Shown here piece by piece: positions 8,840 to 56,649 of a DNA stretch of 64,000 nucleotides (position 1 is its first letter; every line of letters starts with the position of its first letter). The notes beneath the pieces are model-generated. The model did not search any database. It had not been told where the DNA came from and was given only the letters and a program-made list of their open reading frames with translations. A program made the position numbers and the translations under genes. The stretch lies in assembly GCF_055900595.2 (NCBI RefSeq), contig NZ_CM148325.1, one strand, 5' to 3'.

Positions 8840-10240
8840 ATGCCACATTCCTACGATTACGATGCCATAGTAATAGGTTCCGGCCCCGGCGGCGAAGGCG
8901 CTGCAATGGGCCTGGTTAAGCAAGGTGCGCGCGTCGCAGTTATCGAGCGTTATCAAAATGTTGGCGGCGGTTGCACCCACTGGGGCACCATCCCGTCGAA
9001 AGCTCTCCGTCACGCCGTCAGCCGCATTATAGAATTCAATCAAAACCCACTTTACAGCGACCATTCCCGACTGCTCCGCTCTTCTTTTGCCGATATCCTT
9101 AACCATGCCGATAACGTGATTAATCAACAAACGCGCATGCGTCAGGGATTTTACGAACGTAATCACTGTGAAATATTGCAGGGGAACGCTCGCTTTGTTG
9201 ACGAGCATACGTTGGCGCTGGATTGCCCGGACGGCAGCGTCGAAACACTAACTGCTGAAAAATTTGTTATTGCCTGCGGTTCTCGTCCATATCATCCAAC
9301 AGATGTTGATTTCACCCATCCACGCATTTATGACAGCGACTCAATTCTTAGCATGCACCACGAACCGCGCCATGTACTTATTTACGGTGCTGGAGTGATC
9401 GGCTGTGAATATGCGTCGATCTTCCGCGGTATGGATGTAAAAGTGGATCTGATCAACACCCGCGATCGTCTGCTGGCGTTTCTCGATCAAGAGATGTCAG
9501 ATTCTCTCTCCTATCACTTCTGGAACAGTGGCGTAGTGATTCGTCACAACGAAGAGTACGAGAAGATCGAAGGCTGTGACGACGGTGTGATCATGCATCT
9601 GAAGTCGGGTAAAAAACTGAAAGCTGACTGTCTGCTCTATGCCAACGGTCGCACCGGTAATACCGATTCGCTGGCGTTACAGAACATTGGGCTGGAAACT
9701 GACAGTCGCGGACAGCTGAAGGTCAACAGCATGTATCAGACCGCGCAGCCGCACGTTTACGCGGTGGGCGACGTGATTGGTTATCCGAGCCTGGCGTCGG
9801 CAGCCTATGACCAGGGGCGTATTGCCGCACAGGCGCTGGTGAAAGGTGAAGCCACCGCACATCTGATTGAAGATATCCCTACCGGTATTTACACCATCCC
9901 GGAAATCAGCTCTGTGGGCAAAACCGAACAGCAGCTGACCGCGATGAAAGTGCCATATGAAGTGGGCCGCGCCCAGTTCAAACATCTGGCACGCGCACAA
10001 ATCGTCGGCATGAACGTGGGCACGCTGAAAATTTTGTTCCATCGGGAAACAAAAGAGATTCTGGGCATTCACTGCTTTGGCGAGCGCGCTGCCGAAATTA
10101 TTCATATCGGTCAGGCGATTATGGAACAGAAAGGTGGCGGCAACACTATTGAGTACTTCGTCAACACCACCTTTAACTACCCGACGATGGCGGAAGCCTA
10201 TCGGGTAGCCGCGTTAAACGGTTTAAACCGCCTGTTTTAA
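8840..10240 (+). CDS. sthA: soluble pyridine nucleotide transhydrogenase
   Basis: 466-aa ORF with an FAD-binding GSGPGG motif and a pyridine nucleotide-disulfide oxidoreductase fold; matches SthA/UdhA over its full length as I recall it. Its 3' end overlaps oxyR by 18 nt. Confidence 0.95.
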
Positions 10241-11140
10241 CACTTTATCGAAATGGCCATCCATTCTTGCGCGGATGGCCTCTGCCAGCTGCTCATAGCG
10301 GCTGCGCAGCGGTGAGCCCGGACGATAAACCAGGCCAATAGTGCGGCGTGGTTCCGGCTTAATACACGGCAAATAAACAACCCCATCGCGTTTACGCTCC
10401 GGCGGCACAGCCAGCGCAGGCAGTAAAGTGATCCCGCTACCTGCCGCCACCATGTTGCGCAGAGTTTCCAGGCTGGTCGCGCGGAAGTGTGTATCTTCAT
10501 CCGCCCCGGCTTCAAAGCAGAAACCCATTGCCTGATCGCGCAAACAGTGACCATCTTCCAGCATCAGCAGTTTTTCCCCTGCCAGATCGGCCATTGGTAC
10601 GCATTCGCGGTTCGCCCACGGGTGATCTTCATAGATAGCCAGCAACATTGGCTCATCAAACAACGGCACTTCAATGAATGCTTCGCTCTCTTTCACCAGC
10701 GCGAGGATCACGCAATCGAGTTTGCCGCTGTCCAGTTGCGCCAGTAACTGGTGGGTCTGTGCTTCATGCAGATACATTTCCAGCTTTGGAAAGGTCTGGT
10801 GCAGCATCGGGATAATATGCGGTAACAGGTAAGGCCCAACCGTGGGAATCAAACCAATATGCAGCGGCCCGGACATTGTCTCGCCCTGCTGGCTTGCCAT
10901 CTCTTTAAGGACTTTCACCTCACGCAGCACGGTACGCGCCTGATCCACCAGCAGCATTCCCGCCTGGGTGAATAACACTTTACGGCTGGTCCGCTCCAGC
11001 AACATCACGCCCAGCTCATCTTCCAGCTTACGAATTTGCCCGCTAAGCGTCGGCTGGCTAACGTGGCAGGAATCTGCCGCACGCCGAAAATGACGGTGTT
11101 CAGCCAATGCCACCAGGTACTCAAGATCACGAATATTCAT
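10223..11140 (-). CDS. oxyR: LysR-family hydrogen peroxide-inducible regulator
   Basis: ORF 10223..11170; the internal start [40 protein letters not shown] gives 305 aa, the length I recall for OxyR, and includes redox Cys199 and Cys208. Confidence 0.95.
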
Positions 11141-11235
11141 TATCCATCCTCCATCGCCACGATAGTTCATGGCGATAGGTAGAATAGCAATGAACGATTA
11201 TCCCTATCAAGCATTCTGACTGATAATTGCTCACA
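11141..11235. promoter_or_regulatory. oxyR-oxyS divergent promoter region with OxyR operator
   Basis: Intergenic segment with repeated ATAG/CTAT half-sites (GATAGTTCATGGCGATAGGTAGAATAGCAATGAACGATTATCCCTATC), typical of the OxyR binding site upstream of oxyS. Confidence 0.65.
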
Positions 11236-11352
11236 GAAACGGAGCGGCACCTCTTTTAACCCTTGAAGTCACTGCCCGTTTCGAGAGTTTCTCAACTCGA
11301 ATAACTAAAGCCAACGTGAACTTTTGCGGATCTCCAGGATCCGCTTTTTTTT
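11236..11352 (+). ncRNA. oxyS: OxyS small regulatory RNA with intrinsic terminator
   Basis: Sequence GAAACGGAGCGGCACCTCTTTTAACCCTTGAAGTCACTGCCCGTTTCGAGAGTTTCTCAACTCGAATAACTAAAGCCAACGTGAACTTTTGCGGATCTCCAGGATCCGCTTTTTTTT matches oxyS; the 3' hairpin GCGGATC...GATCCGC is followed by a U-run. Confidence 0.92.
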
Positions 11353-11391
11353 ATTCTACAGGCCCACAGCAAGAGAGCCTGATAGTAACAG

Positions 11392-12675
11392 TTACTCAAT
11401 CCGATCTTTGACAATAAAGAAGTAACACAGCGCCCCGGTGAACGTCACACAGGCCGCGATAACCAGCGCCAGATTAAACGAGTGCGTGGTATCCACTACC
11501 CAACCGGTTACGATCGGAGCAAAGGAAGCAAAAACAAAACTGCCAAAGTTTTGAATCCCGGCGATGGAAGCCACTTTTGTTTCTGACACCATCACCTGCA
11601 CCAGTCCCCATGCAGATGTTCCCGCGAAATGCACGCAGAACAGCGCCATTGAGATAAACGCTACAGCCTGGGCTGGCGAGGAGGATTGCACGACCAGCAA
11701 CGTGCCTAATGCCGACATCATCAAACCGCAGACAATAGCCGTTTTACGCGTCTTCGCCAGGTCGTAGCCTTTTTTCGCCAGCCGATCGACAACAATACCG
11801 TTAACCCACATCCCGACCGCCGCCGCGAGGAAAGGAATCGCCGCCACCCAACCGGTTTTCGCCAGACTGAAGCCTTGCTCGGCTTGTAAATAACCGGGTA
11901 ACCACGCGATGTAGAGCCAACCGGTATAATTGACGCCAGAGAAACCTAAAATCATCCCCCAGGTTGTCCGATGCTTAAACAGCGCCAGCCACTCGCTAAA
12001 TTGTAATTGTGGACGCGGTTTAACCGGCGCGGAGAGATAGGTCCGTTCTTCGTCGGTCAGGACAAACTGCGCCCGGTTGCGATACCACGCGTACCAACAG
12101 ATCCCAACCAGAATCCCCGCCACGCCGATGATGACGAACATTGCCCGCCAGCCCCATGCCAGCTGCATCAATACAAGAGCAGGAGGCGCAATAGCCTGAC
12201 CGATAACGGTAGATGAGTTAAAAATCCCCAGCGCCGTGCCGCGTTCTTTTTGCGCATACCAGTCGGTGATCGACTTTACTCCCGCAGGCATAAATGGCGC
12301 TTCGCCAATACCCAGACCGATACGCATTAAAATAAAGTGGCTAAAAGAATTAACCATTCCTGTTAATGCCTGCATTAATGACCAGAATATTAAGCCTGCA
12401 CCTAAAACTATTCGTGGGCCAAAGCGGTCTAGCAAAATACCGGAAGGGAGTTGTGAAAAACCATAAGACAGAGAAAATGCAGAAAGCAAAACGCCAAATT
12501 CTGTCGCCGATAATCCTAACTCGCCACGAATCGCTTCGCCTGCCACGCTCAATGACGAACGGTCGAGGAAATTAACGATCCCCGCCATAAATAATAAAAC
12601 CAGCGTTACTGTCTGAATACGACGAATCCGTTGCGGTTTATTACCCGCAACACTGGTTGACACATCAACGTCCAT
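11392..12675 (-). CDS. MFS transporter, anion:cation symporter family (sugar-acid permease, DgoT/GudP-like)
   Basis: 427-aa ORF with about 12 predicted TM segments and an N-terminal FLDRSSLSVAG motif, reminiscent of hexuronate/aldonate ACS-family permeases. Confidence 0.75.
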   Translation of the reverse strand: MDVDVSTSVAGNKPQRIRRIQTVTLVLLFMAGIVNFLDRSSLSVAGEAIRGELGLSATEFGVLLSAFSLSYGFSQLPSGILLDRFGPRIVLGAGLIFWSLMQALTGMVNSFSHFILMRIGLGIGEAPFMPAGVKSITDWYAQKERGTALGIFNSSTVIGQAIAPPALVLMQLAWGWRAMFVIIGVAGILVGICWYAWYRNRAQFVLTDEERTYLSAPVKPRPQLQFSEWLALFKHRTTWGMILGFSGVNYTGWLYIAWLPGYLQAEQGFSLAKTGWVAAIPFLAAAVGMWVNGIVVDRLAKKGYDLAKTRKTAIVCGLMMSALGTLLVVQSSSPAQAVAFISMALFCVHFAGTSAWGLVQVMVSETKVASIAGIQNFGSFVFASFAPIVTGWVVDTTHSFNLALVIAACVTFTGALCYFFIVKDRIE

Positions 12676-12741
12676 TTTTAGCTCCTTGAGCGGAATTAAT
12701 CGATTTGCTGACTATTCAGAAAATAATTAAGCGAACCGTTA

Positions 12742-13956
12742 TTACCAGTTCCACAATGTGCCATCTTCCAGTCGTGCGACGGGGAGATACGCCGGGTCAT
12801 ACGGATATTTCGCCGCCAGTTTCTCATCGAAAGAAATACCCAGCCCCGGTTCATCGCCTGGGTGCATATAACCTTCATCGAAGCGCCAGCTGTGCGGGAA
12901 GACTTCAAGCATTTGTTCGGAATAGCCCATGTACTCCTGAACACCAAAGTTTGGCACCCAGAGGTCAAAATGCAGCGCCGCCGCATGACAAACAGGCGAT
13001 AAATCTGAAGGGCCATGCGAACCGGTACGTACCTGATAAAGCGATGCAAAATCGGCAATCCGTCGCATCCCGGTAATGCCGCCTGCATGGGTAATCGTCG
13101 TGCGAATATAGTCAATCAGCTGCTCTTCGATTAACTGCTTGCAGTCCCAGATACTGTTAAACACTTCACCGACCGCAATCGGCGTCACAGTATGCTGGCG
13201 AATCAGACGAAAACATTCCTGGTTCTCGGCAGGCGTCGGATCTTCCATCCAGAACAGGCGGTAATCCTCTATGCTCTTCCCAAAGCGTGCCGCTTCGATA
13301 GGAGTCAGGCGATGGTGCATGTCATGCAACAGATGTTCGTTAAAACCGAACTTATTACGCACCGCTTCAAATAACTTCGGTGTAAAATCGAGATACTTTT
13401 CTGAAGACCACAACTGCTCTTCCGGCCACAGGCCTTTGGTTGCCGGTTCATACGCCAGTCCTTTGCCCTTCGCCAGGCCATAAGTGGTTTGCATACCCGG
13501 TACACCGCACTGCACACGAATCGCCTTAAAGCCCATCTGCTGGTGCTTTGCATAGTCTTCAAGGACTTCATCAATCGTGCGCCCGGTGGTGTGGCAATAA
13601 ACCATCACGCCTTCACGAGAAGCCCCACCAAGCAGTTGATACAATGGCATATTTGCCGCTTTGGCTTTGATATCCCACAACGCCATATCAATGGCAGAAA
13701 TGGCCGACATCGTGACGGGGCCACGTCGCCAGTAAGCACCTTTATAAAAGAATTGCCAGATATCTTCGATACGACTGGCATCGCGGCCAATTAATTGTGG
13801 ACAAAGATGATCTTTCAGATAAGAAGCGACCGACAATTCGCGACCATTTAATGTGGCATCTCCCAATCCACAAAGTCCGCTTGCAGTGGTTATTTTAAGC
13901 GTAACGAAATTACGTCCTGGGCAAGTAACAAAAACATCTGCAGCAATAATTTTCAT
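12742..13956 (-). CDS. enolase-superfamily dehydratase, RspA/ManD-like (putative D-mannonate/aldonate dehydratase)
   Basis: ORF 12742..14016; from the internal Met ([24 protein letters not shown]...) it is 404 aa and aligns along its whole length with the E. coli starvation-sensing protein RspA as I recall it. Confidence 0.8.
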
Positions 13957-14343
13957 TATTGCAATCTCCTGTGTTGTAAATAGACGCTTCAAACTTAATT
14001 TTACGCCTACTACCATACAAGAGAGAAAGAGCGATTATTCAACCGTGATCACATTAAAAATAAAAATTTCCACCGAGGAACAAAAATATCCTCAAATCTC
14101 ACCTACACTATTAACTACCATCGTTAAAACAACGTGTTAAATAATCACATAACAAATTCCTTTAAGGAAGGGAGTTATAACAACAACAAAAGATAATCAT
14201 ATTTTACTTAATTCAATACGTATCGATAGGTTTATTTAAAAAGGATTTTTCGGAATGAGAGATGAAAAGAAGATACACAAGCAGGAAGAAATACGATTAA
14301 TATTAGTTGCGGTAAGGGTAGCCGTTCCTCCCTTCCGCAACCC

Positions 14344-14444
14344 ATTAACCGTTGAAGTCACAGACTATTTCAGGCATTTCTCAACTCAAAATAACGACAG
14401 CCAACGTGAACTTTATGGCTCTCCAGGATCTGCTTTGTTTTCCA
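14344..14444 (+). other. degenerate duplicate of the oxyS 3' half (relic, not a functional gene call)
   Basis: Roughly 75-80% identity by eye to oxyS 11262..11352 on the same strand (shared blocks TTAACC, TTGAAGTCAC, TTTCTCAACTC, AGCCAACGTGAACTTT, CTCCAGGATC). The terminator stem is eroded. Ends exactly at the kinase stop codon. Confidence 0.6.
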
Positions 14445-15923
14445 TCAAACAACGGAGCTCAGCGCACTGGCTACCTGTTTAAAGCGAGCAAACCGTCGCC
14501 TGAGCATGTGTGCTTTTTCTACATTCGGTTCAAGACGAATCACGTTGAGCTGCGTAGCCTTCATGGCCTGTTTGAATCCAGAATAAGCCCCTCCTCCTAC
14601 TGCCGCACACATTGCAGCCGCTCTACAACCTGACTGTTCAATATCGACAATTTCAAGAGGCATTTTGCTGGCATCACAAAACATCTGCATCCAGATTCTG
14701 GAATGCGTTGGCCCGCCAGAGAAACGAATCGTTTGCAATGACTTATCAATCTCAATAAGACGGTCCTGATGCAACAAATGAGAAAAGACAATGCCCTGAT
14801 AAATAGCGTACACCAAATCTTCTCTTTTATGATGCCCACACAGCCCCAAAAATCCCCCGCTTAATGCCTCATGGTAATTCGAGCCAAACAACCACGGGAA
14901 AAAGAGAATATCATTCTGCTTCTCATACCCTCGTTCCACCCACTCATTAATCACCCGATAACTGTCAGGAAGATCCGGTAAAAATTGCTGCAAGAACCAT
15001 GTCAAATTACTGGCTGATGTAGGGCTTCCCTCATGGGCGAAAAATGTACCTGGAATGCTAAATTTCCCCCATACATAGGGATAATCAGAAGGAATAATGC
15101 GATCAAAGATTCGCGTTGCAATTGACCAGGTGCCAGCAACCGCACTTAACGTTGTACTGTCATAGATGCCAGAAGTGAGCGCCGCACCAACGACATCAAA
15201 AACACCACCAAAAACAGGCGTTCCGGCGAGAAGCCCACATTGGCTGGCTGCTTCAGATGTCACAAACCCAGCTAAATCAGCGGAGCCAATAATATCGGGA
15301 ACCTTACCCGCAACTTCCTTAATCTCAAATAGGCGAAAAAGTTCAGCATCATAAGCACTGGTATATTGATTATAAAAATTACTGCCTGAAATATTGGTTT
15401 CTTCACAAGCCAGTTTGCCAGTAAGCCGTGAACGTATGTAATCATGAACCATCAAAATGGTTCCGATGCGGCCATAATTGTCAGTCTCATGTTTTTTCAA
15501 CCAATGCAATAGTGCTACAGGGTGCGATGGCCAGAGCTGTTGCAGACTACGGTGATAACTTTCGCGGTCAATTCCTTGTTCTTTCCAGCTTGCAACCAGT
15601 TGTTGTGCGCGAGAATCAGAGGAAACAATGCCGTGTCGTAAGGGCTTACCTTGCCGGTCGAGCAGGTACAAACCTTTACCATGAGCAGAAAAACTGATGC
15701 CATCAATCTGACTCGCAGTAATATTGTTATCTGACATCGACAGTGAAATGACCTGGCACGTTACCTTCCATAACGCCTCCATGTCGCGTTCGCAAAAACC
15801 AGGACATGGGCTTAACAGAGGTAACGCCTGCGAAGAGACACCTATTTCACGTCCTTCTGCCGTATAAATTCCCGCTTTGGTTTCTGTACCACCTAAATCG
15901 ACACCAATAAAATACCGCTCCAT
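14445..15923 (-). CDS. FGGY-family carbohydrate kinase, L-xylulokinase (LyxK)-like
   Basis: 492-aa ORF with an N-terminal GVDLGGT phosphate-binding motif; global resemblance to E. coli LyxK/SgbK. Confidence 0.8.
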   Translation of the reverse strand: MERYFIGVDLGGTETKAGIYTAEGREIGVSSQALPLLSPCPGFCERDMEALWKVTCQVISLSMSDNNITASQIDGISFSAHGKGLYLLDRQGKPLRHGIVSSDSRAQQLVASWKEQGIDRESYHRSLQQLWPSHPVALLHWLKKHETDNYGRIGTILMVHDYIRSRLTGKLACEETNISGSNFYNQYTSAYDAELFRLFEIKEVAGKVPDIIGSADLAGFVTSEAASQCGLLAGTPVFGGVFDVVGAALTSGIYDSTTLSAVAGTWSIATRIFDRIIPSDYPYVWGKFSIPGTFFAHEGSPTSASNLTWFLQQFLPDLPDSYRVINEWVERGYEKQNDILFFPWLFGSNYHEALSGGFLGLCGHHKREDLVYAIYQGIVFSHLLHQDRLIEIDKSLQTIRFSGGPTHSRIWMQMFCDASKMPLEIVDIEQSGCRAAAMCAAVGGGAYSGFKQAMKATQLNVIRLEPNVEKAHMLRRRFARFKQVASALSSVV

Positions 15924-15939
15924 GATCCCTCCTTAGTTT

Positions 15940-16803
15940 CTAAATATTATCCCAGCCGGCAAAGCGCATTTTCTCTTCAATCCATTGACGTGCATGAATA
16001 ATTTCTAATAGAGGTTCCGTCGCTTTTTCTGTCCACATTTCTATCAGAAACGTTCCGCGATAATTAAGATTACGCAGGATCTTAAATAATTTAATAAAAT
16101 CTACACACCCTTCACCAAAAGGAACGTCACGAAATTGCCCTGGAGAATCAGGCGTTACTGGGTACGTATCTTTAAGATGGATTGCGGCAATTCGATCAAT
16201 CCCCTTTACCAGCTCACTTTCCAGTTCATTACCCCATGCGGTCAGATTGCCAACATCCGGATAAACGGTAAACCAAGGGGAATTAATTTTTGTATCCAGG
16301 ACTTTCCATTTACTAATAGAATTAATAAATGGCGTATCCATGATCTCTACAGCACACATAACTTGTGCCGCTGCGGCCTGTTCAGCTGTCCAGGCCATCG
16401 CATCTTCAAACCAGGCGATAGTTTCTTCATTCTGCGGCTCATAATAAACGTCATAGCCTGCCAGTTGGATTGTTCGAATCCCCAAATCCTGCGCCAGGCG
16501 TAACGCCTTCAACATAATCGTACGTGCCTGCTGACGAGTATCTCTATCATGGCTACCAAATGGAAAACGCCGGTGAGCAGACAGGCACATTGTCGGAATA
16601 CGGATCCCCGTTTGCTGAATGGCGCTAATAAGCTCCATACGCTCGGTGAGCGACCAGTCCAGGCGGGCGAGTCGTTCATCATTCTCATCTACCGACATCT
16701 CAACAAAATCAAAACCGCAAGATTTAGCCAGGGCTAGTTTCTCTACCCAACTGGTATTCCTGGGTAGCGCTTTTTCATAAATACCTAACGGGTGGCGTCG
16801 CAT
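15940..16803 (-). CDS. L-ribulose-5-phosphate 3-epimerase (UlaE/SgbU family, TIM barrel)
   Basis: 287-aa ORF; the N-terminal LGIYEKALP...FDFVEMSVDE...RLDWS...CLSAHRRFP pattern matches UlaE/SgbU closely. Confidence 0.82.
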   Translation of the reverse strand: MRRHPLGIYEKALPRNTSWVEKLALAKSCGFDFVEMSVDENDERLARLDWSLTERMELISAIQQTGIRIPTMCLSAHRRFPFGSHDRDTRQQARTIMLKALRLAQDLGIRTIQLAGYDVYYEPQNEETIAWFEDAMAWTAEQAAAAQVMCAVEIMDTPFINSISKWKVLDTKINSPWFTVYPDVGNLTAWGNELESELVKGIDRIAAIHLKDTYPVTPDSPGQFRDVPFGEGCVDFIKLFKILRNLNYRGTFLIEMWTEKATEPLLEIIHARQWIEEKMRFAGWDNI

Positions 16804-17879
16804 TATTTTCCCTCACGAGTGATCAATTGTTGTTGAAAGATTTTCCGGCTCTTATTCATGTCACGCTGCAACTGCCATTTTTGTTTGATGAATTTAAATG
16901 CCAGTGCGGCGATCAATGTGATCCCCCATACCGCCAGATTGAAATGCAAACTAAGTCCCAACAGACTAAGGCCGGTAGCAATAACCTGAAGCACAAGTAA
17001 GGCACAAAAAACATGACTGACTTTACCCGCCCCACCGAATGGATCTGTGCCTCCCAATACAATTGCAAGAACCGTCAAGAGCAGATAGGAATCGCCATAG
17101 CCCATACGCGCCGAATTAAATCGCGCGAGCATAATAAGACCTGCTAATACACACAACATGCTGGATATAGCATATATAGCAATTAATACGCGGTCGGTGC
17201 GAATACCGCTAAACCATGTGGCGTTAATATTACTGCCACACATATAAATCGTTTTTCCCGTACGGGTTTTGCCGAGGAACAGAGCTAAAGCAACGGTGGT
17301 GACGATAAAAATTATCATCGGTACTGGGATCCCCATGATAACTTCAGACCCAATACTGCGGACTACTGGTGGCATACCACTTAAAGCTGCCCCCTTAGTC
17401 AGGTAAATACCGATACCACTAATAATGGTCATGCTACCCAATGTGACCAAAATAGGGTGAGCGCCTATATGAGAAATAATTGACCCAGTAATAGCTCCAA
17501 TGATGATGGCAATAAGCATCGCCCCGACAATAGCCAGGAAGAGCCAAAACAACTGACTACCTGTAGATGCATCTGCGGGTACATATTGAATCAACAGCCA
17601 GGCCATAAACAGGCTGGTCAGATTCGCAGTACCGATGATTGCCAGATTGAGCCCCCCGCTCAACATGGGTATAAACATCGCAAACGTGAGCAACCCAAGC
17701 TCTGGCAATTGAAATGCAATGCTCAGAAAAGTATTGCCGGTGAAAAAACGCCCCGGCATTACCAGACTAAATAACACCACCGCAATAAAACATATTGATA
17801 ATAAGCCTGAACTGGTACCATCTAGTGGAAAAAATATCCGCTTGTTCATTTCGATCCTCCCGTTAGACGAAACCAACAT
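16803..17879 (-). CDS. monosaccharide ABC transporter permease (CUT2 family)
   Basis: 358-aa polytopic membrane protein immediately downstream of a paralogous permease. True start may be the internal Met (MNKRIFF) at 17849. Confidence 0.75.
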   Translation of the reverse strand: MLVSSNGRIEMNKRIFFPLDGTSSGLLSICFIAVVLFSLVMPGRFFTGNTFLSIAFQLPELGLLTFAMFIPMLSGGLNLAIIGTANLTSLFMAWLLIQYVPADASTGSQLFWLFLAIVGAMLIAIIIGAITGSIISHIGAHPILVTLGSMTIISGIGIYLTKGAALSGMPPVVRSIGSEVIMGIPVPMIIFIVTTVALALFLGKTRTGKTIYMCGSNINATWFSGIRTDRVLIAIYAISSMLCVLAGLIMLARFNSARMGYGDSYLLLTVLAIVLGGTDPFGGAGKVSHVFCALLVLQVIATGLSLLGLSLHFNLAVWGITLIAALAFKFIKQKWQLQRDMNKSRKIFQQQLITREGK

Positions 17880-18855
17880 CAGTTTCTTTACGTTTTTTGT
17901 AATGGGTCACACAAATCGCCGAGACAATAACCACTCCAATAACGATATTGACGAAATAACTCGAGATGCCAATCAAATTAAGGCCGTTTTTAAGAATACC
18001 GATAAGAAATACGCCCATAAGCGTACCAATGACCGTACCACGTCCGCCTGATAAACTGGCACCGCCCAATACCGCTGCAGCCAGCACATCCAACTCTCCG
18101 CCAACCAATGCATTCGGCACAACTTCACTCATACGGTAAGCTTGCAGCATTCCACCAATTGCTGCAGCGGCACCAAGATAACCATAAGCAAACAGATAAA
18201 TTAGCGACACCCGAATCCCAATACGTCTTGCTGATTCGGTATTCCCTCCCACGGCATAAAGCTGACGCCCAATATGGGTTTTGTTCATTATCATCCACGT
18301 CAGAAATGCCATTCCCAGCATAACCACTAACGGTAATCCGATCTGGTAATCTTCTCCGCCAAATTCAAAACTCAGGAAAGAACGCTGCGTAATCCACCAA
18401 TCCGGTAAATCGTAAATACTGTGGCCATTAGTCAACCACATCAACATACCGAACAGTAGCGACTGCATACTAATCGTAATGATGATGGAAACGACATTAA
18501 GGTAATAAATAAGAATAGCGTTTATCAAACCAAAAATGATGCCAAGAAAAACAGCAAACACCAGACAGAAAAATGGATTTGATAGCGTTTCATTAAGCAG
18601 TAACGACGCCACAACATATTGCACAACCGAAGCTACTGCTGCAAAAGAGATATCAATTCCGCCAGTAACCAATACGACAAATAATCCGAGGGCGAAAATA
18701 CCCGTTACGGCATAACTTTCCGAGAGATCGAGCAAGTTCTGTATTGATAAAAACTCATCGCTCATGATGGAAAAAAATACCAGCATGAGAACAATGACCC
18801 ATCCTAACCAAGCTTCGACTGAACGAGGAAACCGCAGCCGCATAAAGCTAACCAT
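17863..18855 (-). CDS. monosaccharide ABC transporter permease (CUT2 family)
   Basis: 330-aa polytopic membrane protein; start overlaps the ATPase stop by 8 nt (translational coupling). Confidence 0.75.
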   Translation of the reverse strand: MVSFMRLRFPRSVEAWLGWVIVLMLVFFSIMSDEFLSIQNLLDLSESYAVTGIFALGLFVVLVTGGIDISFAAVASVVQYVVASLLLNETLSNPFFCLVFAVFLGIIFGLINAILIYYLNVVSIIITISMQSLLFGMLMWLTNGHSIYDLPDWWITQRSFLSFEFGGEDYQIGLPLVVMLGMAFLTWMIMNKTHIGRQLYAVGGNTESARRIGIRVSLIYLFAYGYLGAAAAIGGMLQAYRMSEVVPNALVGGELDVLAAAVLGGASLSGGRGTVIGTLMGVFLIGILKNGLNLIGISSYFVNIVIGVVIVSAICVTHYKKRKETDVGFV

Positions 18856-20365
18856 TAATCACCTCCGCCAACTGCTGCTCGGTATAATTCGAAGGCAACA
18901 GCTCATTAATAATCTTTCCGCGCTTCATATGAAAAATACGATCGCAGTTATAATAAGCTTCTGGTGCTTCATCAGTAATTAATATCACTGAAATACCCAC
19001 ACCTGAAAGCCGATGAATAAGCTGGTAAATACTATCTTTTGCGCCAATATCTACACCTACCGTTGGCGCATCCAGAATTAAAACCTTAGGTCGTGTTAAA
19101 ATCCATTTAGCCAGGACAACCTTTTGTTGATTGCCGCCAGATAGCGTTGAAAGTGGATTATTTGGATCGGTGACTTTAATATCCAAATCCTGGATCCACT
19201 CCTTGACTAAGGTTTCTTTTCGATTTTCATCAATAAACCCCGATGCCGTCTTTAAACGATCCAGAATCGAGAGCACCATATTATCGCTGATAGATTGGGG
19301 TAATACGGCCCCCAGTGTCAGGCGATCTTCTGAAACATATGCTATTCCCAGTTTTACCGCATGCGTGTTGTCTTTAATTGTAACGGGCTTACCTTCCAGA
19401 TAAATATCACCACTATCTGGTCGAGTAATACCGAAAAGACTCAATGCTAATTCAGTTCTCCCCGCACCAAGTAAACCACACAATCCCAGAACCTCGCCCT
19501 GGTGTAGTTTTAGAGAAACATCTTCAAATTGCCCTTTTCTGCATAATTTGTTTAGTTCAAGGACTACTTTGCCTTCAACGCTATTTGGTAGCTTCTTCTG
19601 GTGGACTATAGTTTTTCCGGTCATTAACTCAGTAATATCGCCCGGAGAAAGTTGATTGGCAGCCCACGTTCCAATTATCTCTCCATCACGGATGACCGTA
19701 ATCCGATCTGAAATTTCCTTAACTTCATCAAGGCGGTGGCTAACAAAAACTACGGTAATATTTTTATCGCGTAAGTAATTCACTGTGCGTAGTAATTGAT
19801 TAACTTCTGTACGCGTCAATGATGCCGTTGGCTCGTCCATGATGACTAAGCGGGCATCGGCAATCAGAGCCCGGCAAATCGCGACCTGTTGGCGTTGTGC
19901 AATCGGCAAATGTTGTACTAACGCATCAGGATCGAGATTGAATTGCAGCTCCTGAATTATTTTCTGCGATACATCTCGAAGTTGTTTTTTTCTGTGCAGC
20001 CCTAAATATCCCTTCAGGTTGTATTCAAAAGCGATATTTTCAGCAACAGAAAGATTTGGGAATAAAGAAAGATCCTGATATATCACCTGAATACCCAGTT
20101 CCCGAGCTTTATCAGGAGAAAGACGAGTCCAGGACTTACCATCTATAATAATTTCACTTCCCGAATCAGGGACATAAACACCACACAGCGTTTTGATCAG
20201 AGTACTTTTACCACACCCATTCGCACCAGCAAGACAATGAACCTCACCTTTATTTAAGGTAAGATTGATATTCTTTAGAGCCCTATGGCCACCGAAACTT
20301 TTCGTTAGTGACCTTAGCGTCACTAATGGTTGCTCCGCATTCTTCTCTATAATATGAGGCATCAT
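18848..20365 (-). CDS. sugar ABC transporter ATP-binding protein with duplicated nucleotide-binding domains
   Basis: 505-aa ORF with Walker A GANGCGKST, a second P-loop GLLGAGRTE and the ABC signature LSGGNQQKV; architecture of RbsA/AraG/LsrA-type importers. Confidence 0.85.
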   Translation of the reverse strand: MMPHIIEKNAEQPLVTLRSLTKSFGGHRALKNINLTLNKGEVHCLAGANGCGKSTLIKTLCGVYVPDSGSEIIIDGKSWTRLSPDKARELGIQVIYQDLSLFPNLSVAENIAFEYNLKGYLGLHRKKQLRDVSQKIIQELQFNLDPDALVQHLPIAQRQQVAICRALIADARLVIMDEPTASLTRTEVNQLLRTVNYLRDKNITVVFVSHRLDEVKEISDRITVIRDGEIIGTWAANQLSPGDITELMTGKTIVHQKKLPNSVEGKVVLELNKLCRKGQFEDVSLKLHQGEVLGLCGLLGAGRTELALSLFGITRPDSGDIYLEGKPVTIKDNTHAVKLGIAYVSEDRLTLGAVLPQSISDNMVLSILDRLKTASGFIDENRKETLVKEWIQDLDIKVTDPNNPLSTLSGGNQQKVVLAKWILTRPKVLILDAPTVGVDIGAKDSIYQLIHRLSGVGISVILITDEAPEAYYNCDRIFHMKRGKIINELLPSNYTEQQLAEVING

Positions 20366-20428
20366 AATATTCCTGAATACGACTAAAGGAATTCCGGGTC
20401 AAATTTGACCCGGTGATTTACAGTAAAA

Positions 20429-21433
20429 TTACAAGCCTAGCTTCACTAAACGTCGTGTATTTTCAAGATCGAGCTTTTCTGGATTATCACTATAAATAGT
20501 GTTGTTATTAACCTTGATCTCGCCCATATCACCGATTTTTACACCGTCTTTAATAGGTTCACCGTTCATCATTGCCGTCGCAACCTGGACAAAAACCTTA
20601 CCCGCAATCATAGGGTTTGAAATATATCCCCCATCAATGGCACCTTTTTCGAGTAGCTTAATTCCCTGACCTGGAGTGAAGGTTCCAAAAACGCAAATTG
20701 CATCATTTTTCTTCCGCTTATCAATAGCACGCCCCGCACCAATTGGTCCTTGTGAACCAAATGACATAATGCCTTTAAGATCTTTATATTTAGACATTAA
20801 ATCGTTCGTCGTGCGCATTGAATCATCCACCGACTCAGCAACACCAAAACGATCTTCAACCAACGTCATATTTGGATAATGTTCTTTTTGATAGGCAATC
20901 GCGGCATTGGCCCAGTCATTTACCAAAGGCACAGTCAGACTGCCGACAAACATGGCGTATTTACCTTCTTCGCCCATACACTTCGCCATATCTTTCATAT
21001 GATTGGCACCCATTGTCTGGGTATTTAACAACTCAAAATCCCAATCTGCATTTTTTTGATCTGGTGATTCGTGGGTAATAACTTTAATACCGGCTTCTTG
21101 TGCACGCTTAAGTACAGGTTCAAGAACCTTTGCATCGTTAGGAACAACACCAATAACATCCACTTTTCGTGCAATTAAATCTTCAATCGCCCGAACCTGT
21201 TCAGCTGGATCTGCCGTTGTAGGGCCGACCTGCCATGCATCAACCCCCAATAGTTTTCCTTCATTTTTAATGCCTTGTTCCATCACATTAAACCAGGGAA
21301 TTCCACCGACTTTTACTACTACCCCCATCGTAAAAGGTTTATTCGCTTTTTGTGATGTTACAGTCTGATCAGCCCATGCAGCAGTGGAAGATAATACGGT
21401 AGCAATAAGGCAGGGTAAGATTAATTTTTTCAT
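20429..21433 (-). CDS. periplasmic sugar-binding protein (type I PBP, ABC substrate-binding component)
   Basis: 334-aa ORF with an N-terminal signal peptide (MKKLILPCLIATVLSSTAAWA) and LsrB/RbsB-like fold features; first gene of the transporter operon. Confidence 0.75.
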   Translation of the reverse strand: MKKLILPCLIATVLSSTAAWADQTVTSQKANKPFTMGVVVKVGGIPWFNVMEQGIKNEGKLLGVDAWQVGPTTADPAEQVRAIEDLIARKVDVIGVVPNDAKVLEPVLKRAQEAGIKVITHESPDQKNADWDFELLNTQTMGANHMKDMAKCMGEEGKYAMFVGSLTVPLVNDWANAAIAYQKEHYPNMTLVEDRFGVAESVDDSMRTTNDLMSKYKDLKGIMSFGSQGPIGAGRAIDKRKKNDAICVFGTFTPGQGIKLLEKGAIDGGYISNPMIAGKVFVQVATAMMNGEPIKDGVKIGDMGEIKVNNNTIYSDNPEKLDLENTRRLVKLGL

Positions 21434-21555
21434 CGTAATTTCCTTAAGAAATAGTTCAGGTGTCAGGAAAACTCGATATAATATCGACCTGACTATTTAT
21501 ATAATTTATAATCCCTTAGGCATTGATTAATAATTTAGACAATAAATAACGCCTA

Positions 21556-22365
21556 TTATTTATCAACCTCCACAATGTTTAATTGTGGAAATTGTGTTCG
21601 ATACCGAGTATCTGTACAAACATTAGTCACCAGAATATCGATTTCATCCAGCGTGCATATTTTACTAAATGCATACTGTTCAAACTTAGTGGAGTCGACC
21701 AGCAATATTTTTTGTCCTGACACCTGAAGCATCACCTGTTTAAGTCTGGCATTAATTTCACTGCCATCGCGGACACCATTCCCCAGATTCAACCCCTGGC
21801 ATGAAAAGAAAAAACTGTTGATTTGAAAATTTCGGATCGCACTCTCTGCAACCGGGCCATGAAAATCATCATGTCGCTCAGAATACTCACCACCGATACC
21901 AATAATTCGAACTCGATCACGGCAAGCTAACGCCTGAATTATCCGTAATGAATTTGTAACTACGGTAACATCTATATCGGGAATTTGACGAGCTAAAAAC
22001 CAACAAGTACTACTGTTATCCATTAAAATACAATCACCAGGGTGAATAAATTGCAATGCGGCCTTCGCAATTCTGGCTTTTATATCAGGATTTTCTTCAG
22101 TCCGTTTACGGAATGATTCCGCACGATCGATACTATTATCTTGCCACGCATTATCGGCGAGCATAACCGGAGCGCTATCAGATGAATCCAGAGCGACCGC
22201 GCCACCAAAGCTACGGATTAACTTTTTGTTGCGCTCCAGTACCGTTAAATCCCGACGAATTGTCTCAGGAGACGCTTTAAATAATCGTGATAATTCAGTT
22301 ACCCGCACAGCACCTTGTTTTTGTACATGTGCGCATATCATTTTATGGCGCTCTGCCTGCAACAT
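21556..22365 (-). CDS. DeoR-family transcriptional regulator
   Basis: 269-aa ORF with an N-terminal HTH (VRVTELSRLFKASPETIRRDLTVLE) and a C-terminal DeoR sugar-phosphate-binding domain. Confidence 0.8.
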   Translation of the reverse strand: MLQAERHKMICAHVQKQGAVRVTELSRLFKASPETIRRDLTVLERNKKLIRSFGGAVALDSSDSAPVMLADNAWQDNSIDRAESFRKRTEENPDIKARIAKAALQFIHPGDCILMDNSSTCWFLARQIPDIDVTVVTNSLRIIQALACRDRVRIIGIGGEYSERHDDFHGPVAESAIRNFQINSFFFSCQGLNLGNGVRDGSEINARLKQVMLQVSGQKILLVDSTKFEQYAFSKICTLDEIDILVTNVCTDTRYRTQFPQLNIVEVDK

Positions 22366-22806
22366 AGTATCGGTCCGTTATTATCAAATTAGCATGCTTA
22401 TATAATTAACTGTTCCCTCATAAAATAAAGTGATAGGAATCAAGATTCATTTTATAATTATAATCGCAAACAGGAATGGTGATCTTTATCACAAATTAAA
22501 TTGAGAACACTCTACTATTTGACATTACTTTGAGATATCGGTCACTAAATAAGTCTTATTCTGCCATCTAACGAAAAATTTAAATACAAAAACAAAAATA
22601 ATCGGGCATAGCAATCGCTTCCATTCATGACCGAATACGCCCGAATAAAACCGTTTATACCCACTTATCCTCTTTCGTTGCCTTCTTACATGCCTTGAAT
22701 ATTTTACATTTCTTATATTCAGCGTAATTTAGGAAACATAATTTATGAGCAAAAAAAGCCCAAACTCAAAAGTTAAAGTTTATTTATATAATACATACAG
22801 ATTATC

Positions 22807-23511
22807 GTGGAGTTAAAAATGGATATGCTAAAGGAAAAAGTTCTTGCTGCGAATTTATCATTACCCCTTCATCAGTTAGTGACGTTTACCTGGGGAAATG
22901 TTAGTGGTGTTGATCGCGAAAAAGGTGTCATGGTTATTAAACCTTCTGGGGTCGAATACAGCCAAATGGGCATTGCAGATATGGTGGTAGTGGATTTACA
23001 AAGTGGTGAAGTTATTGATGGACACAGGAAACCCTCTTCAGACACCGATACTCATCTGGCGCTATACCGTGCTTTCCCGGATATTGGTGGTATCGTTCAT
23101 ACCCATTCCCGACACGCCACAATATGGGCTCAGGCCGGAAAAGATCTCACGGCCTTTGGGACAACCCACGCTGATTATTTCTACGGCACTATCCCCTGTA
23201 CACGCCCCATGAAGGATGACGAAATTAATGGACAATATGAATATGAAACGGGGCGAGTGATTATTGAAACGTTCAGACAACGAGAAATATCTCCCGCTGA
23301 CATTCCGGCTGTTTTAGTAAACAGTCATGGCCCCTTTGCCTGGGGAACTGATCCCGCGAACGCCGTGCATAACGCCGTTGTACTTGAAGAAATTGCCTAT
23401 ATGAATCTCTTTACACAACAACTACAGCCCCATCTTACGGCTATTCAACAGCCTCTACTGGATAAGCATTTTTTACGCAAGCATGGTGCCAATGCTTATT
23501 ACGGGCAGTAA
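22807..23511 (+). CDS. L-ribulose-5-phosphate 4-epimerase (class II aldolase fold, AraD/SgbE/UlaF family)
   Basis: 234-aa ORF closely resembling AraD ([74 protein letters not shown]), including the conserved metal-binding His residues. Confidence 0.85.
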
Positions 23512-23560
23512 CCCTCTTAGCATGGCCTGGCGTTTTGCCAAGCCATAAATCGCCTAAGAC

Positions 23561-24934
23561 TTACTCCAACCGCGCCTGCGCAAAAGCAATCGCCTGCGCC
23601 ACCTGCTGCGGTGAGACGCCGCCTTTTGCCGCACGCTTGTCGAGGCACGATTGCAGCGACAGAATCGGATAGACATCTTCGCCAATCACCTGACTGAATT
23701 TCTGCAACTCACTGAGCGGCAGATCTTCCAGCGGTTTGCCCTGACGAATGGCTTCCACCACCGCTTCACCAACAATATGGTGCGCCTCGCGGAACGGCAC
23801 ACCTTTCGCCACCAGGTAATCCGCCAGTTCAGTGGCGTTCGCATACCCCTGCTGCGCCGCTTCCTGGCAACGTGGGCGTTTCACCTGAATGCCGTCCAGC
23901 ACCAGCGCCGCCATATGCAGGCAGTCCAGCCAGGTATCGAGCGCGTCGAACAGACCTTCTTTGTCTTCCTGCATATCTTTGTTATAAGCCAGCGGCAAAC
24001 CTTTCAGCGTCATCATCATGCCAGTCAACGCGCCCTGAACACGACCGCATTTACCGCGAATCAGCTCCAGCGCATCCGGGTTTTTCTTCTGCGGCATTAA
24101 TGATGAACCGGAAGTCACGCGATCAGAAAGCTCCACAAAACCCGCTTCGCCGGTGTTAAAGAAAATCAGATCTTCGGCAAAACGCGACAAATGCACCATA
24201 CCGATAGCGGCGGCAGAAAGCAGTTCCAGCACGTGGTCGCGGTCAGAAACGCTGTCGAGACTGTTACGGGTCGCCGAAGCAAAGCCCAGCCAGCCTGCTA
24301 ACTGTTCACGGTCGATTTCATAGGCCGTTCCCGCTAGTGCGCCACAGCCTAACGGGCTGACATCCAGACGCTTAAGCGCATCCTGCAAACGGCTTTCATC
24401 ACGCGCCAGCATCTCAACATAGGCCAGGCACCAGTGCGCGAACGTCACCGGTTGGGCGCGTTGCAGGTGAGTGTAACCTGGCATTACCGCGTCCTGATTG
24501 TTTTGTGCGGTTTCCACCAGCGCCGATTGCAGCTGTCGGTTAGCCGTCAGCAACTCGCTAACGGTATCCTTGCACCACAGTTTCAGATCGGTCGCCACCT
24601 GATCATTACGGCTACGCCCGGTGTGCAGTTTTTTGCCTAACTGGCCCACTTTGTCGATCAGTTTGCCTTCCACCCAGCTATGGATATCTTCGGCGTCGCT
24701 TTCAAGAATTTGTTGTGGCCTGGCGCGAACATCTTCCAGCAGCACATTGAGCGCCTCTTCCAGTTGCACCTGTTCTTCTGCGGTTAACACGCCTACCGTT
24801 ACCAGCGCTTTGGACCAGGCCACAGAGCCAACAATATCCTGCTCCGCCAGACGGTAATCAAAGCGCAGTGAGTCGTTGAATTGTTTAAACCGTTGATCTG
24901 CTGCCTGGGTAAAACGCCCGCCCCAAAGTGCCAT
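23561..24934 (-). CDS. argH: argininosuccinate lyase
   Basis: 457-aa ORF ([44 protein letters not shown]...) with the fumarate-lyase signature [12 protein letters not shown]. Confidence 0.95.
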
Positions 24935-24994
24935 AACTCTGTTTCCTTATTTTGAAATTCAATGCCGGAAAGCTACATCTCCGGCCAACAAAAC

Positions 24995-25771
24995 TTAAGC
25001 TAAAATCCGTGTACCCATCGGCATACCGTTAAACAGTGCCGGAAGCTGTTCCGCATGACGCCAGGAGGCAATATCTACCGGGCGACCCAGTGTGCGCGCA
25101 GCGTCCAGCGCCGCGTTCACTTTCACTATCATGCCGTCAGTAATAATGCCCTGCTCAATCAGTTGTTCTGCTTTCGCTGCGGTCATTTCGGCAATACGTT
25201 GCCCTTTGCCGTCGAGAATACCGCTGACATCAGAGAGCAAAATCAGATCCGCGCCCAGCGTTGCCGCCAGCGCCGTCGCCGCCTGGTCAGCATTGACGTT
25301 CATCAGTTGCCCTTCGTCCGTTACGCCAATGGAGCTGACCACTGGTAGATAACCGTTTTCCAGCAACGTGTTGATAAGCTTAGGCGAACCTGGCTGCGCC
25401 AGTCCAACATGGCCTAACTCTTCATCGAGCTGGGTCACTTTTACGCTGTCGCCGTCGCCAAGAAACAAACCTACGGCTGCAATCTGATGTTTCTTCGCCC
25501 ATGCCAGCAGGGTTTTATTTGCCGTTCCCGCCAGCGCTCCGGTGATAATGTCTATCTGATCCGCAGGCGTCACCCGCAGGCCGTTTTTCTTTTTCACCGG
25601 CAGATTCAGTCCTTTCATCAGCTCATCCACCACGCAGCCGCCGCCGTGGACAATCACCAGCGGACGCTGATGTGACTCGCGATAATTCACCAGGGCGCTA
25701 AACAGACGTTCCAGCGCCTCTTCACTATCCAGCAGTACGCCGCCCAGTTTGATAATTAATGGATTCATCAT
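24995..25771 (-). CDS. argB: acetylglutamate kinase
   Basis: ORF 24995..25804; the internal start [20 protein letters not shown] gives 258 aa, the length I recall for ArgB. Confidence 0.93.
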
Positions 25772-25778
25772 TGCACCC

Positions 25779-26783
25779 CTAAATAAGAGACTGCGTTTCC
25801 GCATAGCCGAAACGAATATTGGCGCACTGTACCGCTTGTGCTGCCGCGCCTTTCAATAAGTTGTCTTCGGTCGCCACAATAATCAGATGTTCCCCCTGAA
25901 CGGCAAAACCGATATCGCAGAACGGCAGCCCGACGACATTTTTCAGCGCCGGAACGCCTTTGTCATACAACCGTACCAGCGGTTTATGGGCATACGCCTG
26001 CTGTAACGCTTGCGCGACTTGCGCCTGGTTCACGCCTGGCTTCAGGCGGCAGGTAATGGTTTCGAGAATGCCGCGCGGGAAATTGCCCAGATGCGGGGTA
26101 AAAATAACGTCAGCACCGAGATGCGTGGCGATCTCCGGCTGGTGGCGATGGGTAAAGACACCATACGGTTGCAGGCTAACTTCACAAAAACTATTTGAAA
26201 TCGCTGCCTTACGTCCTGCTCCGCTCACACCACTGGTGGCGTTGATAACCGGCCACTGATTGAGGTCAAGAAGATCGGCATCAATCAACGGTTTCAGCGC
26301 CAATTGCGCCGCCGTCGGATAACAGCCAGGCACCGCAATTAAGTTCGCTTCTTTTAATTTATGACCGCACCACTCCGCCAGACCGTAAGCTGCCTGTTCC
26401 AACAGTTCCGGGTATTGATGGCTAAAGCCGTAATATTTTTCATAGAAGGTGGCGTCGTTAACACGAAACGCGCCGGAAAGGTCGAACACCACACAGCCCG
26501 CTTCAAGAAATTGTGGCGCTAAATCGTGACTAACTTCATGGGCAGTAGCAAGAAACACCACGTCCACCCCTGGGCTAAACTCACTGATATCCGACATCGG
26601 CTGCAACGGCAGATCAACGATGCCTTTTAGCTGCGGATGCAAATCGGAGATTAACTTTCCCGCATCATTGCTTTGCGCTGAAACAGTCAAAGCGGTTATG
26701 TTCATATGCGGATGGCGATTTACATAGGTCACTAGCTCTGCGCCAGCGTAACCGCTGGCACCCACAATCAGCGTATTCAACAT
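25779..26783 (-). CDS. argC: N-acetyl-gamma-glutamyl-phosphate reductase
   Basis: 334-aa ORF ([27 protein letters not shown]...) with the catalytic Cys region (PGCYPTAA). Confidence 0.95.
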
Positions 26784-28091: not shown

Positions 28092-28142
28092 GTAGGCCAA
28101 ACAATGTCGGATGCGATGCTTGCGCATCTTATCCGACCTACA
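28092..28142. repeat. REP (repetitive extragenic palindromic) element
   Basis: GTAGGCCAAACAATGTCGGATGCGATGCTTGCGCATCTTATCCGACCTAC, an imperfect palindrome of the REP type just downstream of argE. Confidence 0.7.
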
Positions 28143-48942: not shown

Positions 48943-49237
48943 CTGAAGGGCGTCAACCGAAAAATGACCAATGATGGTGAGGAAAAATCAGGGAAGATGA
49001 AAAAAACTCATCTTAATTAGAGGTAATAAAGAGATTTCTTTATAGCGCAATCAACCTCACTCGTTTTGACTGATATACAGGCAACACAACGGCACCTGTT
49101 CTCATTCGAAAAACAACGCCCTGCCACCAGATGGTGATGCTAAAGCATCTGATTCGGCCTGCGCTCTCGTGTAGGCCGAATACAGAATCTGCGAAATCAA
49201 CTGGTAACAAACAGTAGAGTCAACTCAGTGCGTACTT

Positions 49238-50797: not shown

Positions 50798-50923
50798 TCC
50801 CTTCCAGTGAGATAAAGGATTGCTACATTACGTTCTGAAAGGCTTTTTTATGTGAGAATACTCACATCCAGAGGCAATAACTGTAGGACAAAATCGACGA
50901 CCTTATGAAATCGTTGGTGATAT

Positions 50924-52051: not shown

Positions 52052-52280
52052 TCAATACACTCGACAAACGACCATAAATTAATGGGATCACTATTTCTCA
52101 TTTAATTAAATATATGAATGTATGACTGAAAAATATAATCACAGTCAATGTTTAATTAATAACATTATTTGTTACTAAGATCACATAATACTTTCCTGAC
52201 CTATGCTTACATAAAAATAAGACACGGAGTTCCTTTTATTTAAATAATTCAACCAATGTAACAACCCCTATCAAGGAGGG

Positions 52281-53834: not shown

Positions 53835-53868
53835 AATATCATTTATCAGTCTATTTATTTAACAAGGA

Positions 53869-55494: not shown

Positions 55495-55504
55495 TAAAAA
55501 AATT

Positions 55505-55540
55505 ATAATGCCATTCATTCACTGAATGGCATTATTTTTC
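55505..55540 (+). terminator. intrinsic terminator after nucleotidase paralog 3
   Basis: Hairpin AATGCCATTCA-TTCAC-TGAATGGCATT followed by ATTTTTC. Confidence 0.7.
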
Positions 55541-55572
55541 TCTAAATCAACAATAAATAATGAGATATATTT

Positions 55573-56433: not shown

Positions 56434-56614
56434 ATCAGGTGATGTTTTAGATATTTTTACTTAATGCCATTTTGTAATTGTCATAAATAACTTCACCATT
56501 CACACTGTGAATTCATCGCTCAACACAAAAGCCCCCTTATTACCGGGGCACTGACCAAAGGCAAAATGACAATCAATCACCACCTCCGCAGGAGGTGGTT
56601 TAGAGGTGACAACA

Positions 56615-56641
56615 AAAGCTGGCAACTGCCAGCTTTTGTTC
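56615..56641. terminator. bidirectional intrinsic terminator downstream of metL
   Basis: Perfect palindrome AACAAAAGCTGGCA-ACT-GCCAGCTTTTGTT immediately 3' of the metL stop; a second hairpin ACCACCTCC-GCA-GGAGGTGGT lies at 56578..56598. Confidence 0.75.
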
Positions 56642-56649
56642 AATAATCA

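Follow-up and report, generated by a model that had tools for sequence, protein, structure and literature searches.

The DNA analysed here is a 64,000-nucleotide window of an Escherichia coli chromosome (assembly GCF_055900595.2, contig NZ_CM148325.1), and this report concerns a block of accessory DNA that lies in it between oxyS, the gene of the OxyS small RNA, and argH. When the junction of K-12 MG1655 was aligned to the window by BLASTN, the match ran through position 11352 and resumed at 23560, so that 53 bp in K-12 are replaced by 12,207 bp in the window (11353-23559). A preliminary description of the sequence had placed a 12.2-kb gap at 11353-23560, had expected a short oxyS-argH spacer in K-12, and had divided the block into two functional modules. 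Its coordinates are exact against the K-12 alignment, the short spacer is the 53 bp of MG1655, and the gene list matches both modules, i.e. a major facilitator superfamily (MFS) transporter with a ManD/RspA-like dehydratase, and a sugar ATP-binding cassette (ABC) transporter with a kinase, two epimerases and a DeoR-family regulator. The block has no counterpart in K-12, which does not hold these genes between oxyS and argH, and it is accessory, as had been supposed. The neighbouring genes are oxyR (10223-11140, minus strand) on the oxyS side and argH itself (23561-24934, minus strand).

The first part of the block, the MFS-manD segment (11353-14165), is followed by an ABC/epimerase segment (14166-23559) with a cassette of eight genes, in which those of the regulator, the binding protein, the ATPase, two permeases, the 3-epimerase and the kinase occupy one strand and that of the 4-epimerase is divergent (Table 1). 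The transporter is a CUT2-type sugar ABC system, and the RefSeq annotation of all block genes is generic, gene by gene. Base composition differs between the two parts: the content of guanine plus cytosine (GC) is 42.8% in the ABC/epimerase segment, with 34-46% at third codon positions (GC3), compared with a GC of 52.5% and a GC3 of 55-61% in the flanks, whereas the MFS-manD segment (GC 48.8%, GC3 51-55%) is only marginally unlike the flanks. Thus the A/T-richness noticed at first sight holds for the ABC/epimerase part and barely for MFS-manD.

Table 1. Positions of the features at the oxyS-argH junction, in window coordinates
Feature	Position	Strand	Evidence or remark
oxyS, functional small-RNA gene	11236-11345	+	Rfam RF00035, 139.5 bits against a gathering score of 75; accessory DNA follows on the end of the terminator T-run at 11352 (left boundary)
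MFS transporter, anion:cation symporter / D-galactonate-transporter type	11392-12675	-	TIGR00893, 275 bits, under the curated cutoff of 395; RefSeq 'MFS transporter'
ManD, D-mannonate dehydratase, enolase superfamily, RspA paralogue	12742-13956	-	NF043051 equivalog, 731.5 bits against a cutoff of 550
Spacer upstream of manD	13957-14311	.	ordinary E. coli allele to about 14080, then a strongly diverged allele exclusive to cassette carriers
Decayed second oxyS (pseudo-oxyS)	14312-14441	+	abuts the kinase stop codon; robust homology of 14345-14441 to 11256-11352
FGGY sugar kinase, LyxK homologue, predicted L-xylulokinase	14445-15923	-	42% identity, 411 bits, full length against K-12 LyxK
L-ribulose-5-phosphate 3-epimerase (SgbU/UlaE type)	15940-16803	-	TIGR00542 equivalog, 457 bits against a cutoff of 272; 71% identical to K-12 SgbU
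ABC transporter permease, second of two	16803-17849	-	RefSeq annotation and NCBIfam profile
ABC transporter permease, first of two	17863-18855	-	RefSeq annotation and NCBIfam profile
Sugar ABC ATPase with two ATP-binding cassettes	18848-20365	-	XylG-type 452 bits and AraG-type 439 bits, both under cutoffs
Periplasmic sugar-binding protein, AauA/Rbl ketopentose-binding family	20429-21433	-	PDB 9I1M (AauA) and PDB 3D02
DeoR/GlpR-family regulator, first gene of the minus-strand string	21556-22365	-	RefSeq annotation and profile
A/T-rich divergent intergenic region between deoR and 4-epimerase genes, presumed control region	22366-22818	.	consensus promoter matches only
L-ribulose-5-phosphate 4-epimerase (AraD/SgbE type)	22819-23511	+	TIGR00760 equivalog, 414 bits against a cutoff of 389
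Spacer between 4-epimerase gene and argH	23512-23560	.	conserved argH terminator hairpin in degenerate form; accessory DNA has its right boundary here
3' 1.2 kb of argH, core DNA inside the imported tract	23561-24750	-	mismatch profile against the nearest backbones

A second oxyS, in decayed form and referred to below as pseudo-oxyS, adjoins the stop codon of the kinase gene. Local alignment of its conserved part with the functional gene gave a score of 98, compared with a maximum of 26 for shuffled sequences, and a repeat finder recovered it independently as three collinear families (D1, D3 and D5) at a spacing of 3089-3090 nt. The Rfam OxyS model scored 14312-14434 at 30.1 bits (E 1.6e-4), under the gathering score of 75, and non-canonical pairs are numerous in every stem; due to this low score and the broken stem pairs, we treat the copy as a pseudogene. 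It is closer to the E. coli form of oxyS than to the Citrobacter form and is found in both cassette alleles of E. coli described below. No oxyS remnant was detected in the corresponding spacer of genomes with MFS-manD only (score 19, shuffle mean 18.5).

The preliminary description had proposed a survey of the junction across strains, and in 5,426 complete E. coli genomes the expected variability was found in the form of three states, which together cover about 5,421 genomes. The empty K-12-type junction is intact in 3,553 genomes. The MFS-manD segment is present at >95% identity in 1,859-1,868 genomes (~34%), about 1,715 of which lack the cassette, and the ABC/epimerase segment occurs in 146 (2.7%), always as a single chromosomal copy and accompanied by MFS-manD in all 146 carriers. 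Two cassette alleles exist, one at least 99% identical to the window (9 genomes) and the other at about 98.4% (137 genomes). The left junction of MFS-manD was identical across all MFS-manD-only and composite genomes examined, and every contig read from a wider database had the order kinase-manD-MFS-oxyR.

The backbone of the window represents a rare divergent E. coli lineage of 8-9 near-identical genomes, whose right flank matches K-12 and the bulk of E. coli at ~96%. The edges of a recombination tract are visible in this lineage only against its nearest backbones, N96, 2017-02-2CC and R32_14_1F, all of which carry MFS-manD without the cassette. The window is near-identical to them through MFS-manD to ~14080, and the spacer beyond is the allele of Ecol_545, a genome of the other carrier lineage; this switch of alleles is the left edge of the tract. 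On the other side, argH differs by 2-3% from N96 and 2017-02-2CC between 23561 and ~24750, after which argB and argC are near-identical again, and the argH allele of the window is exclusive to 8 genomes, the next best match being 97.6%. From the switch in the spacer and the divergence in argH we deduced an imported tract of about 14.1-24.75 kb. A local recombination tract read from the identity of the right flank to K-12 (~95%) in itself was rejected because the 64-kb profile shows ~96% for the whole backbone.

Synonymous divergence (dS) between the window and Ecol_545 was 0.016-0.065 for the eight cassette genes, 0.09-0.105 for the MFS and manD genes and 0.156-0.19 for argH, argB and ppc. Hence, between the two host backbones, the cassette has diverged 4-5 times less at synonymous sites than its flanking genes, which indicates that the cassette is younger than the split of those backbones.

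Outside E. coli, 21 loci were detected when the kinase was searched for in species-representative genomes, all with the same gene set in the same order, and the closest kinase relative in that scan reached 70% identity. The cassette is not exclusive to E. coli at the argH-oxyS site: it directly separates argH from oxyR/oxyS, without MFS-manD, in Citrobacter amalonaticus, Citrobacter sp. MGH106 and Cu233, and Atlantibacter sp. RC6. In Citrobacter and Atlantibacter the argH terminator hairpin (GCCTGGC-N4-5-GCCAGGC followed by a T-run) is present at both ends of the cassette, and K-12 has a single hairpin of this kind between argH and oxyS. The cassette occupies other sites in Serratia, Erwinia, Pantoea, Yersinia (including Y. 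pestis) and Providencia. Identity of the cassette proteins to those of E. coli is 81-95% in Citrobacter and Atlantibacter, where the kinase stands out at 68-70%, 72-89% in Erwinia, Serratia and Yersinia, and 65-83% in Providencia; the GC content of the cassette follows the host in most other genera and is 10 points lower in E. coli. Moreover, conjugative IncFIC plasmids of Citrobacter, Enterobacter and Klebsiella carry the whole eight-gene cassette at ~70% DNA identity, between an ars operon and the insertion sequence IS1, an example being Citrobacter freundii NZ_OW967264.1 (72442-81656). As a separate observation, the binding-protein gene of Citrobacter amalonaticus AUH_CA_2023_1 is apparently split and its kinase and 3-epimerase fall under the 60% coverage filter in tblastn, which may be an assembly error or decay. 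A chimeric kinase in E. coli, suspected from the low identity to the Citrobacter proteins, was rejected since divergence is uniform along the protein.

On balance, and with moderate confidence, we favour a model in which the 12.2 kb between the convergent oxyS and argH genes are two independent metabolic islets of non-mobile-element character, the composite having been joined and spread by homologous recombination, and in which the cassette encodes a ketopentose route. According to this model, the MFS and manD genes would have been inserted directly after the oxyS terminator, and the cassette would be an old unit, mobile among Enterobacterales. The composite would have arisen once, when an Escherichia-like chromosome of the arrangement oxyS-cassette-argH was joined to one of the arrangement oxyS-MFS-manD, likely by recombination with a homology anchor on one side only; the old oxyS would have been left as a decaying pseudo-copy beside the kinase gene, and the composite would then have passed between E. 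coli lineages through homologous recombination.

A different history, in which the Escherichia ancestor already had the cassette at this site and most lineages then lost it, the empty junction of K-12 being a deletion product and E. coli never having gained the cassette, seems improbable to us, although some comparative data would suit it. Position and orientation are shared with the Citrobacter amalonaticus-group strains and Atlantibacter, cassette protein identities roughly track taxonomy, and pseudo-oxyS is E. coli-like; moreover, recombination between the argH-terminator direct repeats that bracket the cassette in Citrobacter and Atlantibacter would yield exactly the K-12 state. However, an ancestral cassette would be expected neither to keep a GC3 of 34-46% next to flanks of 55-61%, i.e. 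without adopting host composition, nor to show the 4-5 times lower dS between the two carrier backbones. The backbones nearest to the window lineage have no cassette, breakpoints of recombination can be seen near 14.1 and 24.75 kb, and the cassette was without MFS-manD in none of the 146 complete carriers or the wider-database contigs read. The ancestral view and the recombination model can be partly reconciled if the cassette is old at the site in the family and circulates by recombination in present-day E. coli.

The preliminary description had further regarded the junction as an integration hotspot. That the site is strain-variable and accessory is borne out by the survey, but repeated independent insertions are not: since there are only three states, a constant left junction, a cassette always found with MFS-manD, and no tRNA, integrase, transposase or phage, the term is not supported as stated, and the variation is better explained by few old events followed by spread by homologous recombination. 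ARAGORN detected no tRNA or tmRNA gene in 9000-26000; no integrase, transposase or insertion sequence was found in 11353-23559, where all open reading frames (ORFs) of at least 80 amino acids belong to 10 metabolic, transport or regulator genes; and no phage similarity of the block was found. A classical mobile-element hotspot, at which an integrase, phage or transposon repeatedly inserts cargo, could be read from the presence of two unrelated modules at one intergenic site, from the 97-nt direct repeat (oxyS and pseudo-oxyS) that brackets MFS-manD, and from the IS1 adjoining the plasmid copy of the cassette. Against the absence of all such machinery and the restriction to three junction states in 5,426 genomes, however, it is very unlikely. 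The block is ordinary pan-genome variation and not a new kind of element.

What the cassette may import is best approached through its binding protein, whose best solved relatives are PDB 3D02 (287 bits) and PDB 9I1M (285 bits, 49% identity over 272 residues). The latter is AauA of enterohaemorrhagic E. coli (EHEC), which binds D-ribulose with a dissociation constant of 2 µM through contacts with K37, W43, E118, H167, E196 and S223, and in which His167 hydrogen-bonds the C2 and C4 hydroxyls of the ligand (PMC12307932). At the aligned positions the protein of the window has K41, W47, E122, V171, E200 and S227, i.e. five of the six contacts are kept, and valine takes the place of the histidine here as in all 20 orthologues examined, so that the full set of D-ribulose contacts is not present. 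L-xylulose is the C4 epimer of D-ribulose. For this reason, and because it is the sole free sugar for which the kinase, the 3-epimerase and the 4-epimerase would make a complete route to D-xylulose-5-phosphate, we propose L-xylulose as the predicted substrate, and consider the chances about even that it is the sugar taken up by the cassette and catabolised to D-xylulose-5-phosphate. In the proposed pathway, the AauA-like binding protein and the ABC transporter would import a ketopentose, most likely L-xylulose, and the LyxK-like kinase would produce L-xylulose-5-phosphate; the SgbU-like 3-epimerase would convert this to L-ribulose-5-phosphate, and the SgbE-like 4-epimerase would convert the latter to D-xylulose-5-phosphate, feeding the pentose phosphate pathway. 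The DeoR protein would keep the genes repressed until an inducer is present.

This gene set resembles several known systems without coinciding with any of them. With the yiaK-S and ula operons of E. coli it shares a LyxK-homologous kinase and SgbU- and SgbE-like epimerases, both above NCBIfam equivalog cutoffs, the 4-epimerase being 72% identical to that of the K-12 yiaK-S operon (labelled araD in RefSeq, corresponding to SgbE). With ula it also shares a DeoR-family regulator (UlaR model, 112 bits). Unlike these operons, the cassette has neither the decarboxylase of 3-keto-L-gulonate-6-phosphate (SgbH/UlaD) nor the YiaK reductase, as tblastn with K-12 SgbH and YiaK gave no match in the window or in the 21 related loci with 10 kb of flanking sequence, and its uptake system is a CUT2 ABC transporter instead of the TRAP transporter YiaMNO or the phosphotransferase system UlaABC. 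Since decarboxylase and YiaK are absent and uptake is of the CUT2 type, the entry point is probably a free pentulose and not a gulonate derivative.

The D-ribulose ABC systems Aau of EHEC and Rbl of Citrobacter rodentium are alike in transporter family and subunit layout, and Rbl also in having an FGGY kinase linked to the transporter. They differ from the cassette in their genomic site and in their partners, which are D-ribulokinase and a KpsF-type isomerase instead of L-pentulose-5-phosphate epimerases, and AauA in the His167 that is valine here; the paper on them makes no mention of epimerase, DeoR, oxyR or argH (Cottam et al., Nat Commun 2025, PMC12307932). The nearest published cluster is that of Histophilus somni, in which the genes of a sugar ABC transporter are linked to those of an L-xylulokinase-like protein, a 3-epimerase and a 4-epimerase; unlike the cassette, that cluster bears a decarboxylase of 3-keto-L-gulonate-6-phosphate, and its transporter is annotated as ribose-type (PMC3224263). 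No description of the oxyR-argH island or of its gene combination was found in full-text literature searches. The cassette is a variation on known sugar-utilisation systems inside an ordinary recombination-borne islet.

Another substrate, whether L-ribulose, D-ribulose as in Aau and Rbl, 3-keto-L-gulonate by way of the chromosomal SgbH/UlaD, or a further ketose, appears less probable than not to a clear degree, and the arguments for it are of several kinds. The relatives AauA and Rbl of the binding protein bind D-ribulose; the kinase is just 42% identical to LyxK and under all curated cutoffs, and some records label its homologues 3-keto-L-gulonate kinase, where other sources name them L-xylulokinase; and L-xylulose as the ligand is predicted from sequence. 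However, an L-xylulose-5-phosphate 3-epimerase would be superfluous for routes through D-ribulose-5-phosphate or L-ribulose-5-phosphate, yet its gene is kept in all 21 loci, from 8 genera; no decarboxylase accompanies the cassette in these loci or on the plasmids; and the histidine with which AauA contacts the C2 and C4 hydroxyls is valine in every orthologue examined.

Several observations weigh against the account given here, in its historical as well as in its biochemical part. The proposed join draws on a chromosome with the cassette but without MFS-manD, and no such E. coli was found among the 146 complete carriers or the wider-database contigs read; moreover, as far as can be inferred, the join fits either direction, from the cassette into an MFS-manD genome or from MFS-manD into a cassette genome. 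The contrast in dS comes from two backbones only. The cassette has a higher ratio of nonsynonymous to synonymous divergence than the flanks, on small counts (one permease has 7 nonsynonymous and 5 synonymous changes), and in a Hadza gut metagenome contig (1560-3076) the ABC ATPase gene is broken into two ORFs (385 and 112 residues), which suggests that some carriers have an inactivated cassette; from these two findings, the function of the cassette in E. coli may be weakly selected. With respect to the kinase, no LyxK model was among its NCBIfam matches and every kinase model scored under its cutoff, and LyxK itself also phosphorylates 3-keto-L-gulonate. The E. coli kinase further sits on a long branch, its identity to those of Citrobacter and Atlantibacter being 68-70%, compared with 82-85% between the latter two, and no kinase at 70-99% identity was found in a database of 5.8 billion proteins. 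Thus no close donor emerged from the genome scan, this database or the plasmid copies, and a changed specificity is possible.

For the other islet, the MFS transporter is predicted from its family to be a sugar-acid importer, and the pair suggests that a hexonate such as D-mannonate may be imported and dehydrated to 2-keto-3-deoxy-gluconate. ManD of the window is ~90% identical to PDB 4IL2, which is labelled 'Starvation sensing protein rspA', and the chromosomal rspA paralogue has 81% DNA identity to manD. The protein is like the ManD subgroup in exceeding the NCBIfam ManD equivalog cutoff, and unlike E. coli RspA in being a second copy at another site, with an MFS partner instead of rspB. Many ManDs, reportedly from work of the Gerlt laboratory, are low-efficiency enzymes with an unclear role in vivo.

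Two further differences from K-12 were seen elsewhere in the window. Between metF and metL (49006-56650) lies a second block absent from K-12, with three paralogous genes for UshA-like 5'-nucleotidases, a 375-amino-acid ORF and a Tsx-family nucleoside channel, which looks like a nucleotide-scavenging islet; and between argE and ppc (28098-28100) K-12 is ~300 bp longer.

The junction offers a clean, datable case of the spread of a metabolic cassette among E. coli lineages by homologous recombination without mobile-element machinery, in which pseudo-oxyS serves as a fossil record of the join. For work on oxyS in carrier strains, a decayed second copy 3 kb away is worth knowing. The cassette, with a different predicted sugar, is also a candidate third ketopentose ABC system beside Aau and Rbl, two systems recently connected with the colonisation of the gut by attaching-and-effacing pathogens. 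In mammals, L-xylulose occurs as an intermediate of the glucuronate-xylulose pathway. We put it slightly short of an even chance that the cassette is dedicated to uptake and catabolism of free L-xylulose, or of a close L-ketopentose, as predicted from its genes; it would then form a third, stereochemically distinct branch of the Aau/Rbl systems, mobile as a unit among the chromosomes of Enterobacterales and IncF plasmids, with which a few E. coli lineages could exploit L-xylulose from the host or the diet.

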